Below, one piece after another: positions 2,506 to 21,829 of a DNA stretch of 64,000 bases (positions are counted from its first letter, which is position 1; each line of letters opens with the position of its first letter). The position numbers and the translations under genes are program-made. The stretch comes from Escherichia coli (GTDB lineage: Bacteria; Pseudomonadota; Gammaproteobacteria; Enterobacterales; Enterobacteriaceae). Location: the NCBI RefSeq assembly GCF_048403405.1, contig NZ_CP183129.1. The stretch is one strand, 5' to 3'. The notes beneath the pieces are model-generated. The model searched no databases. It saw only the letters and a list, made by a program, of their open reading frames with translations, and was not told where the DNA came from.

Positions 2506-2979
2506 TTATTGCCGCCACGGCATGACAGGAACCGCGCTAATCGCGTTTTTCGGCGAACCTTCTACAACTTTGTCGGAGTAAGCCAGATAAGCGAGCGCGT
2601 TGCGTTTGGCATCATAAAAGCGCACGACCTGTAACGACTTAAAGACCAGGGACGTGCGTTTTTTGAATACTACCTCGCCCTGAGCTTTGCCGTTTTTAAT
2701 ACGATCCGACAGTTCAATCGGCCCGACTTGCTGACAAGAAATGGCCGCATCGGAGGTATCTTCTGCCAGGCCCAATCCCCCTTTAATACCACCGGTTTTC
2801 GCCCGGCTCACATAACAGGTGACATTTTTCACATCGGGATCGTCAAAGGCTTCCACAACAATTTTGTGATCCGGGCCGATCATTTTAAATACGGTGTCGA
2901 CCGAACCAATCTCTTCTGCATGAGCCAATGGCCCCAGCATTATCAGGCTTAAAGACAGGATCAAATGCTTGTATTTCAT
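2506..2979 (-). CDS. creA: CreA periplasmic protein
   Basis: 157 aa with signal peptide [21 protein letters not shown]; first gene of cre operon. Confidence 0.9.
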
Positions 2980-3189
2980 ATTGTTACCATTTTTATCTAT
3001 TACACGAGCAATTAGTTCGTCACGGTAAATAACATATTGATTAAGAACAAAATCTCAATACTTTTATTTCCGTCAAGTCCTAAAACATACTCTACTAAGA
3101 AAAAAACACTGAATGCTAAAACAGCAAAAAATGCTATTATCCAATTACCTGATGTCAGGTGCTCGTTGTTGAAAGGATGAGGATATTTT

Positions 3190-4059
3190 ATGGATCAGGC
3201 CGGCATTATTCGCGACCTTTTAATCTGGCTGGAAGGTCATCTGGATCAGCCCCTGTCGCTCGACAATGTAGCGGCGAAAGCAGGTTATTCCAAGTGGCAC
3301 TTACAGAGAATGTTTAAAGATGTCACTGGCCATGCTATTGGCGCGTATATTCGTGCTCGTCGTTTGTCGAAATCGGCGGTCGCACTACGCCTGACTGCGC
3401 GTCCGATTCTGGACATCGCGCTGCAATACCGCTTCGACTCTCAACAGACATTTACCCGCGCATTCAAGAAGCAGTTTGCCCAGACTCCTGCACTTTACCG
3501 CCGTTCTCCTGAATGGAGCGCCTTTGGTATTCGCCCGCCGCTACGCCTGGGTGAATTCACTATGCCAGAGCACAAATTTGTCACCCTGGAAGATACGCCG
3601 CTGATTGGTGTTACCCAGAGCTACTCCTGTTCGCTGGAGCAAATCTCTGATTTCCGCCATGAAATGCGTTATCAGTTCTGGCACGATTTTCTCGGCAACG
3701 CGCCGACCATTCCGCCGGTGCTCTACGGCCTGAATGAAACGCGTCCGAGTCAGGATAAAGACGACGAACAAGAGGTATTCTATACCACCGCGTTAGCCCA
3801 GGATCAGGCAGATGGCTATGTACTGACGGGGCATCCGGTGATGCTGCAGGGCGGCGAATATGTGATGTTTACCTATGAAGGTCTGGGAACCGGCGTGCAG
3901 GAGTTTATCCTGACGGTATACGGGACGTGCATGCCAATGCTCAACCTGACGCGCCGTAAAGATCAGGATATTGAGCGATACTACCCGGCAGAAGATGCCA
4001 AAGCGGGAGATCGCCCAATTAATCTGCGCTGTGAACTGCTGATTCCGATCCGTCGTTAA
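3190..4059 (+). CDS. rob: AraC/XylS-family transcriptional regulator Rob
   Basis: 289 aa, N-terminal AraC HTH and C-terminal GyrI-like domain; conserved position next to creA. Confidence 0.93.
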   Translation: MDQAGIIRDLLIWLEGHLDQPLSLDNVAAKAGYSKWHLQRMFKDVTGHAIGAYIRARRLSKSAVALRLTARPILDIALQYRFDSQQTFTRAFKKQFAQTPALYRRSPEWSAFGIRPPLRLGEFTMPEHKFVTLEDTPLIGVTQSYSCSLEQISDFRHEMRYQFWHDFLGNAPTIPPVLYGLNETRPSQDKDDEQEVFYTTALAQDQADGYVLTGHPVMLQGGEYVMFTYEGLGTGVQEFILTVYGTCMPMLNLTRRKDQDIERYYPAEDAKAGDRPINLRCELLIPIRR

Positions 4060-17427: not shown

Positions 17428-17542
17428 TAAGGCTCCTGTAAAATCGTTCGAAGCAGGGAAAATAACGCATGAGGCTACCTTGTATCCATTGCTTCTGGCA
17501 ACATTAAGTCTCAAATTGTACTGACCCCAAAAAGTTGGACAG

Positions 17543-18394
17543 TTAAACACGAGGCATATAGGTCTGATTCCGATATTCAATTGGAGTCAGACCTTTTAAT
17601 TTCAGGCTAATTCTTCTGCTGTTGTAGTATTCAATATATTCCGTAACAGCATCCTTCAGTTCGCTTATATTACTGAACTCATCAAGATAAAAACACTCCG
17701 ACTTTAAGGTTCCAAAGAAACACTCCACCACAGCATTATCCAGACAATTGCCTTTTCTGGACATGCTTTGTTTAATACCATGTTCTTTAAGGATATTTTG
17801 ATATCTTCTCATACGATACTGCCATCCCTGGTCAGAGTGCAGAACAGGATGCTCGTGAGGATTAAGCTTTTTGAATGCCTGATCGAGCATATTCTCAACC
17901 ATGTTCATCACTGGTCTTTCCGAAAGGCTGTAAGAAATAACTTCGTTGTTGAAGAGATCTATTACTGGAGACAAATACAGCTTGCGCCCATTGACTACAA
18001 ATTCAGTAACATCGGTAACCCACTTCTCGTTTGGCCGCGTAGCCTTGAAATCTCTTTGGAGAACATTAGGGGCGGTTTGCCCTACCTCTCCTCTGTAAGA
18101 GCGGTATCGCTTGACCTTAATCGCTGCTTTAAGTGAGAGGGTTCCCATCAGGCGCTGAACAGCTTTATGGTTAATCTGTTTCCCTTCTCGATGAAGAGAC
18201 AGCGTTACCCTACGGTATCCGTATCGGCCTCTATTCTCGTGATAAATCTCACCAATACGCTTTTTAACGTCCGCATACTTGTCAGGCTTGCTGAGAGCCT
18301 TTAGATGGTAATAAAACGTACTGCGCGGTATCTCCGCAGCCCTGAGAAGCTCATCAAGAGGATAAAACTGCCTTAGCTCGTTGAGTACTTTTAC
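17543..18394 (-). CDS. insK: IS150 transposase orfB (InsK), expressed by -1 frameshift from orfA
   Basis: DDE-type integrase core (ORF track shows 201 aa C-terminal part from internal Met); upstream extent approximate. Confidence 0.8.
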
Positions 18395-18912
18395 TTTTTC
18401 GTGGGATGAGCTAAGGCTTTCAGCTTTTTTAGATACATAAGCCGCGTTTCAAGAAATCGAACTTGCCTTTCAAGATCCTCAATGCGTCGGTCTTTTGACA
18501 GCTCCAATGCTGATGCCGCTTTTTCTGGATCAACTGATATTGCAATGTTTCTTTTGGTGCCAATCTTGAGCGCGCGTAAACCAGCTTCTCCGCGCTCTTC
18601 ATAGACCTTCAGCCACCTGGCTACAGAACCACTACCAGCAAGCATAAAGTGAGCAGCAGCCTGATTAAGGGACATGTGCTGCTCGATCACAGCTTTCACG
18701 ACCTTAATACGCAACTCTGGATCAGCACTAACGCCTTTAGGTTTGGGAATTAAACCTTTTTCTCCATGTTTTTCATAGAGGGCAACCCATGTCCTGACCT
18801 GGGTTCGGGGGACACCAAAACGTGCCGAGATGATCCTGTAACCATCATCAGTTGTGAAGTAGTGATTCACGACTTCAAGGCGCTTTTCAAAAGGGTATTT
18901 TGGCTTTGACAT
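18391..18912 (-). CDS. insJ: IS150 transposase orfA (InsJ), HTH protein
   Basis: 173 aa MSKPKYPFEKRLEVVNHYFTTDDGYRIISARFGVPRTQVRTWVALYEKHG... Confidence 0.88.
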   Translation of the reverse strand: MSKPKYPFEKRLEVVNHYFTTDDGYRIISARFGVPRTQVRTWVALYEKHGEKGLIPKPKGVSADPELRIKVVKAVIEQHMSLNQAAAHFMLAGSGSVARWLKVYEERGEAGLRALKIGTKRNIAISVDPEKAASALELSKDRRIEDLERQVRFLETRLMYLKKLKALAHPTKK

Positions 18913-18978
18913 ATTAGGGGCTATTCCATTTCATCGTCCAACAAAATGGGTGCAGTACAAATTTTCAAAGGGTGGAAG

Positions 18979-19650: not shown

Positions 19651-20667
19651 ATGTCCACATTACGCCTGCTCATTTCTGACTCTTACGACCCGTGGTTTAA
19701 CCTGGCGGTGGAGGAGTGTATTTTTCGCCAGATGCCCGCCACGCAGCGCGTTCTGTTTCTCTGGCGCAATGCCGACACGGTAGTGATTGGTCGCGCACAG
19801 AACCCGTGGAAAGAGTGTAATACCCGGCGGATGGAAGAAGATAACGTCCGCCTGGCGCGGCGCAGTAGCGGTGGCGGCGCGGTGTTCCACGATCTCGGTA
19901 ATACCTGCTTTACCTTTATGGCTGGCAAGCCGGAGTACGATAAAACTATCTCCACGTCGATTGTGCTTAATGCGCTGAACGCGCTCGGCGTCAGCGCCGA
20001 AGCGTCCGGACGTAACGATCTGGTGGTGAAAACCGCCGAAGGCGACCGCAAAGTCTCAGGCTCGGCCTATCGCGAAACCAAAGATCGCGGCTTCCACCAC
20101 GGCACCTTGCTGCTCAATGCCGACCTTAGCCGCCTGGCAAACTATCTCAATCCGGATAAAAAGAAACTGGCGGCGAAAGGCATTACGTCGGTACGTTCCC
20201 GAGTGACCAACCTCACCGAGCTGCTGCCGGGGATCACCCATGAGCAGGTTTGCGAGGCCATAACCGAGGCCTTTTTCGCCCATTATGGCGAGCGCGTGGA
20301 AGCAGAAATCATCTCCCCGGACAAAACGCCAGACTTGCCAAACTTCGCCGAAACCTTTGCCCGCCAGAGTAGCTGGGAATGGAACTTCGGTCAGGCTCCG
20401 GCATTCTCGCATCTGCTGGATGAACGCTTTACCTGGGGCGGTGTGGAACTGCATTTCGACGTTGAAAAAGGCCATATCACCCGCACCCAGGTGTTTACCG
20501 ACAGCCTCAACCCCGCGCCGCTGGAAGCCCTCGCCGGACGACTGCAAGGCTGCCTGTACCGCGCTGACATGCTGCAACAGGAGTGTGAAGCGCTGTTGGT
20601 TGACTTCCCGGAACAGGAAAAAGAGCTACGGGAGTTATCGGCATGGATAGCGGGGGCGGTACGGTAA
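19651..20667 (+). CDS. lplA: lipoate-protein ligase A
   Basis: 338 aa [22 protein letters not shown]... Confidence 0.95.
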
Positions 20668-20698
20668 CTCGCTCATTAAAATATCCAGGGAAGGAAAT

Positions 20699-20926
20699 AT
20701 GATCGATCTGGAGAGTCAGGAGCGGGAGGTTATCAATTTAATGTTCAGCCAGGGTATATCCTGGCTAGCCGCCGTGCGTATCAGGCATAAATTATCGCTT
20801 GCTGAAGTAAGTAAAATGTTAGGTATCTCGATTAATTCTCTAAAACGGATCGAAAAGACGGAACGGCTTAGCTCAAACATCAAAAGAAAATGGCAGGAAT
20901 TTATGGTTGTCCACCAGAGTTGCTGA
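20699..20926 (+). CDS. 75-codon XRE-type HTH ORF at the position K-12 yjjJ occupies; possible remnant
   Basis: HTH-like segment LSLAEVSKMLGISINSLKRIE; only 183 bp separate its stop from the deoD stop, so no room for a full yjjJ. Confidence 0.4.
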   Translation: MIDLESQEREVINLMFSQGISWLAAVRIRHKLSLAEVSKMLGISINSLKRIEKTERLSSNIKRKWQEFMVVHQSC

Positions 20927-21109
20927 TATACCCTTACTGGATGACGGCTGAACATAAATGAATAGATTCATGAATGGATTTTATTTTCTATCCATATGAA
21001 AAATAATAGTAAATCTATAAATCAGTCGCTATTGATGAATAGATACTAAAAAGCCGGAGCAGTCTCCCGTTCCGGCTTCACAAGGCAATCGCCTTTCAGC
21101 GAAACACAA

Positions 21110-21829
21110 TTACTCTTTATCGCCCAGCAGAACGGATTCCAGCGCGATTTTGATCATGTCGTTGAAGGTGGTCTGACGCTCTTCAGCAGTGGTCTGCTCG
21201 TGAGTACGGATATGGTCAGACACGGTGCAGATAGCCAGTGCTTTCGCACCAAACTCTGCAGCCACGCCGTAGATACCAGCCGCTTCCATTTCCACGCCGA
21301 GGATGCCGTATTTTTCCATCACGTCGAACATTTCGCCGTCCGGAGAGTAGAACAGGTCAGCGGAGAACAGGTTACCCACGCGAGCATCAACGCCCAGTGC
21401 TTTAGCCGCGTCTACCGCGTTACGCACCATGTCAAAGTCAGCGATAGCGGCAAAGTCATGGTCTTTAAAACGGATGCGGTTAACTTTGGAATCGGTGCAG
21501 GCACCCATACCGATAACGACGTCGCGCAGTTTTACGTGTGGCAGAACAGCGCCACAGGAACCCACGCGGATAATTTTCTTCACGCCGAAATCGGTGATCA
21601 GTTCTTTGGTGTAGATGGAGCAGGACGGGATACCCATACCGTGACCCATTACGGAAATTTTGCGGCCTTTGTAAGTACCGGTGAAGCCCAGCATACCGCG
21701 AACGTTGTTCACTTCACGGGCATCTTCAAGGAAAGTTTCAGCAATATACTTCGCACGCAGCGGGTCGCCTGGCATCAAAACTACGTCAGCGAAATCGCCC
21801 ATTTCTGCATTAATGTGTGGGGTAGCCAT
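21110..21829 (-). CDS. deoD: purine nucleoside phosphorylase DeoD
   Basis: 239 aa [34 protein letters not shown]... Confidence 0.95.

Follow-up and report, generated by a model that had tools for sequence, protein, structure and literature searches.

In Escherichia coli K-12 the site between lplA and deoD is occupied by yjjJ (b4385), also named hipH, which encodes a kinase toxin of the HipA family that carries an N-terminal helix-turn-helix (HTH) and is encoded without an antitoxin (PMC8262856). The control of HipH has been described as unknown (PMC8262856), and its control by c-di-GMP has been placed only at the "promoter region" of the gene (PMC11452175). In K-12, yjjJ is 1332 bp long and lies on the deoD strand, with its stop codon abutting that of lplA and the end encoding the N-terminal HTH pointing toward deoD.

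In the window, i.e. the whole 64-kb stretch of E. coli DNA that was analysed, the same site looks different. The genes lplA (lipoate-protein ligase A, 338-aa ORF, 19651–20667, plus strand) and deoD (purine nucleoside phosphorylase, 239-aa ORF, 21110–21829, minus strand), both annotated in TUM14771 and in K-12, are separated by exactly 442 bp (20668–21109) according to the ORF list of the window, and the 442 bp of TUM14771 are 100% identical. The sole ORF in the gap with homologues consists of 75 codons on the plus strand (20699–20926). Its ATG is preceded by the purine-rich, Shine-Dalgarno-like sequence GGGAAGGA (20688–20695, plus strand), which is kept in all alleles of the HTH type, that is, those with this gene in the place of yjjJ. 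No kinase-sized ORF is present within the gap, and a Pfam search of the 75-aa ORF gave no HipA_C kinase domain (PF07804). The initial annotation had described a 442-bp gap between lplA and deoD with one short HTH ORF, which the coordinates confirm, and had stated that K-12 carries yjjJ at this position and that YjjJ is a HipA-like kinase toxin with an N-terminal HTH, in agreement with the K-12 annotation and with PMC8262856, respectively. Its further proposal, that a deletion removed the kinase and kept a DNA-binding piece of YjjJ, stands in one half only; yjjJ is ancestral here and has been lost, but the ORF is not a part of YjjJ that was left behind.

Alignment to the O157 allele revealed a 1-bp deletion, AAAAG[C]AAAATGG, at 20886/20887, which shifts the frame of an 87-codon gene at codon 63 and thereby accounts for the length of 75 codons; codons 1–62 are read as in an 87-aa HTH protein of the XRE family and codons 63–75 are out of frame. 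The full span of the pseudogene in its ancestral 87-codon frame is 263 bp (20699–20961, plus strand, with the stop codon TGA at 20959–20961), and after repair this span gives the 87-aa orthologue. The same 263 bp are labelled by PGAP in TUM14771 as "helix-turn-helix domain-containing protein, frameshifted". The intact allele of O157:H7 is 264 bp long and encodes the 87-aa protein WP_000566150.1, present in E. coli, Shigella and other Escherichia; the window thus carries the same gene at the same position but with 1 bp deleted, residues 63–75 out of frame and 12 residues fewer, and residues 1–62 show four differences to the O157 protein. The frameshift is real and fixed in its lineage, and not an error, since 140 of the 5426 complete E. 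coli genomes contain an exact copy of a 61-mer spanning the frameshift site, and 249 contigs are on record with precisely the 75-aa product. Because of this record, and because the dN/dS of intact orthologues is about 0.2–0.45, the ORF is evidently not a chance ORF either.

When the 75-aa ORF was analysed with Pfam all matches were weak, and all were to HTH families. Sigma70_r4 gave 24.9 bits and HTH_3 gave 22.6 bits, the latter covering profile positions 1–31 only and falling below the cut-off of 23 since the domain is truncated. The N-terminal helix and helices 1–3 are kept, so the helix-turn-helix proper is intact, with helix 4 scrambled and helix 5 absent. In other E. coli lineages independently frameshifted or truncated variants of 93, 101, 73 and 65 aa (P0040, P0029, P0026 and P0028) were found, which suggests a recurrent decay of the HTH gene.

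The comparison with YjjJ gave no sign of common descent. The ORF of the window is encoded on the same strand as lplA and near that gene's end of the gap, whereas the deoD strand carries yjjJ in K-12, Salmonella, Citrobacter and Kosakonia. BLASTP against K-12 YjjJ, including its N-terminus, where the initial annotation had expected the similarity, gave chance matches only (E 3.4 for the 75-aa product and 0.21 for the 87-aa form), and these were short and situated outside the YjjJ N-terminus. When the cassette was searched with blastn-short (word size 7) against yjjJ regions from K-12, Salmonella, Citrobacter and the enterobacterium of locus L008, nothing was found within the ORF, the only meaningful match being a 12-mer at the junction, and tblastn against the same four orthologues gave E values of at least 1. 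The 75-codon ORF is thus, judging from position, strand and sequence, not derived from YjjJ; compared to K-12 it shares the site between lplA and deoD, but it is on the opposite strand and lacks both sequence similarity and a HipA_C domain. What persists in the window is the first three codons of yjjJ together with an array of repeats from its upstream region.

Both endpoints of the replaced segment could be defined when the locus was compared across strains. To the left, homology between the two haplotypes ends at the stop codon of lplA. Directly after this stop codon follows the 12-mer CTCGCTCATTAA (20668–20679, minus strand), the reverse complement of TTA ATG AGC GAG, which is an exact match to K-12 (L001 3901–3912) and corresponds to codons 1–3 of yjjJ and three upstream bases. 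To the right, homology restarts at 20953 with CAT AAA TGAATAGAT, corresponding to the start codon of yjjJ, a spacer of 3 nt and the first repeat. The 12-mer sits exactly at both breakpoints, and we estimate the chance of such a match at around 1e-6, counting the few relevant placements, which makes a coincidence very unlikely. Its last bases, CATTAA, and the CATAAA at 20953–20958, which aligns with the yjjJ start codon and the 3-nt spacer, are the left and right copies of an imperfect direct repeat of 6 bp. In the O157, E. marmotae-type, E1V33 and L016 alleles the remnant matches in 11 of 12 positions (CTCGCTGATTAA). Between the two copies lies the HTH cassette (20680–20952, plus strand, 273 bp), which takes the place of yjjJ in K-12 and has no similarity to the K-12 yjjJ segment; its GC content of 42.9% is lower than that of the window (52.4%), lplA (57.6%) and yjjJ (53.8%).

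The gap was further compared with 5426 complete E. coli genomes. Its 442 bp match 4564 of them, in 4057 cases with at least 80% query coverage, and the feature under those 4057 matches is annotated as "helix-turn-helix domain-containing protein"; a gene other than yjjJ, without similarity to it, is hence found at this position in 4057 of the 5426 genomes, against the expectation of the initial annotation. The gene yjjJ itself is found in 1347. A chimeric query combining the 5' end of yjjJ with the HTH gene gave, at 80% coverage or more, none among 5421 matching genomes with both genes adjacent, showing that yjjJ and the HTH gene never co-occur in the complete E. coli genomes. K-12 and APEC IMT5155 are of the yjjJ type, and BL21, E. 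coli C, E2348/69, a Nissle derivative and an O25:H4 strain of the HTH type. K-12, BL21 and E. coli C share one phylogroup, as do IMT5155, E2348/69, the Nissle derivative and the O25:H4 strain, and strains from the same phylogroup on both sides suggest that the haplotypes have spread via recombination in the flanking core genes. Several of the "plasmids" in PLSDB that contain the HTH gene are 0.4–4.9 Mb in size and appear to be chromosomes or chromosome fragments.

Outside E. coli, the order deoD-yjjJ-lplA is found in Salmonella enterica, Citrobacter freundii, Kosakonia cowanii and the L008 enterobacterium, and in Erwinia tasmaniensis yjjJ follows directly after deoD; homologues of YjjJ are widespread in Enterobacterales. 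Since yjjJ follows deoD in all these genera, gene order shows yjjJ (hipH) to be the ancestral occupant of the site, transcribed toward lplA. The L008 locus has a deoD-yjjJ spacer of ~1.1 kb (2856–4000) with a 163-aa ORF (3332–3823) and several REP-like palindromic repeats, and its LplA is 92% identical to that of E. coli. The 163-aa ORF seems to resemble REP-associated tyrosine transposases.

Among named sequences the HTH gene is restricted to Escherichia and Shigella, with a single exception, and the HTH-type haplotype includes E. marmotae-type and E1V33 (L015) alleles. The exception, L012, is a short contig from another genus in which a 44%-identical orthologue is located between lplA and deoD, the LplA being 90.6% identical to that of E. 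coli, and in which no recognisable remnant of yjjJ was found. An exhaustive search of representative sequences gave no close family outside the locus; the 38 matches with an E value of 1e-3 or less were mostly fragments, the one 44% orthologue and generic XRE proteins. A profile search of genome contigs with the HTH alignment, using narrow peptide patterns, gave two Escherichia loci only. A seeming homologue of 72% identity, P0033 (loci L013 and L014), was rejected as an artefact. Its loci do not translate to P0033, all of its differences are C-to-T-type changes (R to W/C, S to F/L, A to V and P to L), and it looks like bisulfite-converted E. coli reads that have entered a public assembly.

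To our knowledge no function is on record for the intact 87-aa protein. Pfam gave HTH_3 (PF01381) at 29.4 bits for this form, above the gathering cut-off of 23 bits, covering profile positions 1–55 and residues 23–76. An AlphaFold model (pLDDT 89.7) has helices at residues 4–18, 22–29, 34–41, 45–54, 59–69, 73–76 and 80–86, and when this model was searched with Foldseek the best matches were CylR2, C.BclI, P22 c2 and SinR, the top ones all being XRE repressors with a probability of 1.00. According to both programs the intact form has the five-helix Cro/C1 fold, with a TM-score to target of 0.7–0.77 and an rmsd of 1.5–2.1 Å over 53–60 columns for the best of CylR2, P22 c2, SinR-N and C.BclI. The likeness to the Cro/C1 (XRE) repressors is generic and at the level of the fold only (Foldseek E ~0.02), and unlike these the 87-aa protein has an extra N-terminal helix (residues 4–18). 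A sequence search of the PDB with phmmer gave only a weak match to CylR2 (E 0.45). The dN/dS of the intact alleles, 0.2–0.45 within Escherichia and ~0.23 when compared with the 44% orthologue (~0.05 for lplA), indicates that they are under moderate purifying selection.

Outside the locus, the 87-aa protein is most closely related to the C-terminal HTH_3 domain of certain proteins of 118–124 aa, sharing 36–38% identity over residues 3–77, with pairwise E values of 3e-14 and 4e-15. These proteins are carried by Pasteurella phage Pmp14, Leclercia plasmid pZ96-1_2 and Enterobacteria phage PPyecE_EH1910, and each of them is encoded just downstream of a gene that scores above the threshold for ParE_toxin (PF05016); their N-termini are weakly RelB-like. 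With such antitoxins linked to ParE/RelE the 87-aa protein has the helix preceding the HTH and the whole HTH_3 domain in common, and in the alignment it starts ~45–55 residues into them. In contrast to them it is without the N-terminal RelB-like domain of ~50 residues, presumed to be the toxin-neutralising part, has a unique C-terminal tail of ~10 residues, and occupies one fixed locus on the chromosome. No ParE/RelE-like ORF was found in the gap, and the gene is flanked by lplA (31 nt upstream) and by deoD. From this comparison the 87-aa protein is not classed as an antitoxin, because two of the three testable defining features, an adjacent toxin and the N-terminal domain, are missing.

When analysing the remaining part of the gap, downstream of the cassette, an array of 9-bp repeats appeared. 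Copy 1 (TGAATAGAT, 20959–20967, plus strand) overlaps the ancestral stop codon of the HTH gene, copy 3 (TGAATGGAT) is situated at 20971–20979 (plus strand) and copy 4 (TGAATAGAT) at 21036–21044 (plus strand), 65 bp after copy 3, a spacing that is the same upstream of yjjJ in other genera. Copy 2 (TGAATAGATACT) has been lost through a 12-bp deletion at 20970/20971, as seen in the alignment to O157, and is also missing in E1V33 (L015) and L016; in the E. marmotae-type allele, copies 2 and 4 carry point changes. The motif TGAATRGAT occurs three times in the 64-kb window, all in this gap, with ~1.1 occurrences per window expected by chance. On the yjjJ strand it reads ATCTATTCA, with three tandem copies spaced by 12 bp (positions of approximately -36, -24 and -12 relative to the ATG of yjjJ) and another copy near -100, the tandem array ending 2–3 nt before the ATG. 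This layout is the same in K-12 (L001 3913–4010), Salmonella, Citrobacter, Kosakonia, Erwinia and L008, the array being located upstream of yjjJ in loci L007, L010, L008, L020 and L021, and the HTH-type haplotype keeps it 3' of the HTH stop codon. A layout conserved among these genera, with intervening DNA that is not conserved, marks the array as a cis-regulatory element of hipH, and we infer a candidate hipH operator, most plausibly one for the HTH of HipH itself. Between the yjjJ and HTH haplotypes the motifs and their 3-nt spacers are nearly identical and the 55 bp between copies 3 and 4 about half identical. In L012 (1128–1340) a single degenerate copy of the motif (TGAACAGAC) is left of the array, at the stop codon of the HTH gene, and the rest of the spacer consists of REP-like elements.

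We found no description of the array in PMC8262856, PMC9948734 or PMC11452175, and a literature search for the motif string gave unrelated primer sequences only. A consensus promoter scan gave a single, weak promoter-like site, which overlaps the start codon. Next to copy 4, at 21046–21079 (minus strand), lies the intrinsic terminator of deoD, a GC-rich hairpin followed by a U-run, with a folding energy of -25.6 kcal/mol (z = -2.7) and shared with K-12; it was missed by the consensus terminator scan, since its loop is longer than 8 nt, and was recovered by folding.

Elsewhere in the window, an IS150 element is inserted between serB and ytjB (~17504–18960, minus strand, InsJ ORF 18391–18912). 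IS150 was absent from this site in all 5426 complete E. coli genomes, with no place matching at least 80% of a query that spans both junctions, so the insertion is specific to the strain or to a narrow lineage.

Taken together, the gap is very probably a decayed haplotype of the HTH type, in which yjjJ has been lost, an XRE-family HTH cassette lies in its place and the cassette has been frameshifted in this lineage. A cassette of ~270 bp and low GC content would have been inserted just 5' of the yjjJ start codon, leaving the CATTAA/CATAAA flanks as a short duplication or as microhomology. It would have coded for an 87-aa XRE-family HTH protein akin to the DNA-binding C-terminal domain of ParE/RelE-linked antitoxins. 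Codons 4–443 of yjjJ would then have been deleted flush with the stop codon of lplA, leaving the 12-bp 5' remnant and the orphaned motif array. As no intermediate with both yjjJ and the cassette was found, this order of insertion and deletion is proposed by inference only. The intact 87-aa protein is predicted to be a small dimeric DNA-binding regulator of the Cro/C1 type, and its gene is probably co-transcribed with lplA, considering the 31-nt gap, the Shine-Dalgarno sequence and the lack of a terminator in between. In the lineage of the window the 1-bp deletion would have rendered the pseudogene product non-functional, which would leave this genome without hipH and without a working replacement. 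Some observations sit less well with this scenario. Most HTH-type alleles match the remnant in 11 positions and not in all 12, and the stretch from copy 3 to copy 4 is a mosaic, with 55 bp of only about half-identical sequence between near-identical motifs. In L012, from another genus, the orthologue lies at this site and no remnant is recognisable, so the event may be old or the cassette may have moved between genera, and a 44% orthologue at such a site accords poorly with the well-preserved array of the E. coli type.

The other explanations were weighed against the same evidence. An internal deletion in yjjJ that took the kinase domain and left the N-terminal HTH as the 75-aa ORF would agree with the lack of yjjJ at a site that ancestrally carried it, with the 12 bp left of its 5' end, and with the N-terminal HTH that YjjJ does have (PMC8262856). 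The ORF is, however, on the other strand and proximal to lplA, whereas the N-terminus of YjjJ is proximal to deoD, and with no protein similarity to YjjJ (E 0.21 and 3.4), no DNA or tblastn similarity to four yjjJ orthologues, and clear homologues elsewhere in the HTH domains of ParE-linked antitoxins, such an origin is extremely unlikely. The reverse course of events, with the HTH arrangement being ancestral and yjjJ gained in K-12-like strains where it displaced the HTH gene, draws on the HTH type being the majority in E. coli (4057 of 5426) and present also in E. marmotae-type and E1V33 alleles and in another genus. Against this, yjjJ is found after deoD with the same array from Erwinia to Salmonella, the HTH allele holds both the remnant of the yjjJ start and the array, K-12 is without any remnant of the HTH gene, and the cassette is foreign in composition, all of which makes a late gain of yjjJ highly improbable.

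With a decayed HTH-type haplotype as the preferred reading, the state of the gene in the window remains to be considered. That the 75-aa product could serve as a shortened but functional HTH regulator finds some support in the intact Shine-Dalgarno sequence and helices 1–3, including the recognition helix, and in the fixation of the allele in a lineage that counts 140 complete genomes or more; we consider it unlikely, since residues 63–75 are replaced, helix 5 and half of helix 4 are gone from the five-helix fold, HTH_3 is covered at positions 1–31 only with a score under the cut-off, PGAP flags the gene as frameshifted and the truncated or frameshifted variants found elsewhere (93, 101, 73 and 65 aa) suggest that the gene is dispensable. 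A sequencing or assembly error in an intact gene might be suspected for a single-base indel in an A-rich stretch, but the deleted base is a C outside any homopolymer run, the identical 61-mer is found in 140 independent complete genomes and the 75-aa product comes from 249 contigs of several sources, and the probability of an error is next to negligible. A more far-reaching proposal concerns the array: ATCTATTCA might be the long-sought control element of the antitoxin-less HipH, with the N-terminal HTH of HipH as the likeliest binder, and in the haplotype lacking hipH it might have persisted through use by the antitoxin-derived 87-aa HTH protein or another factor, the toxin kinase and the orphan antitoxin-like regulator then being old and exclusive alternatives on one operator array, kept by selection and not by chance. 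In this complete form the proposal is speculative and we regard it as unlikely.

For E. coli, the locus represents ordinary strain polymorphism of a kind that is already known, and the allele in the window is an annotated, lineage-specific pseudogene of a common uncharacterised gene of the XRE family. K-12 is the minority state at this locus, since yjjJ is normally absent from E. coli (~75% of complete genomes). To read the short HTH ORF as a remnant of HipH, or as evidence that a toxin has shed a domain, would be a mistake. From the perspective of toxin-antitoxin systems the interest is modest, in that the site of an antitoxin-less toxin of the HipA family has been taken by a solo HTH domain of the antitoxin type. 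The array upstream of hipH is a concrete candidate for its operator and the only element here worth following up.
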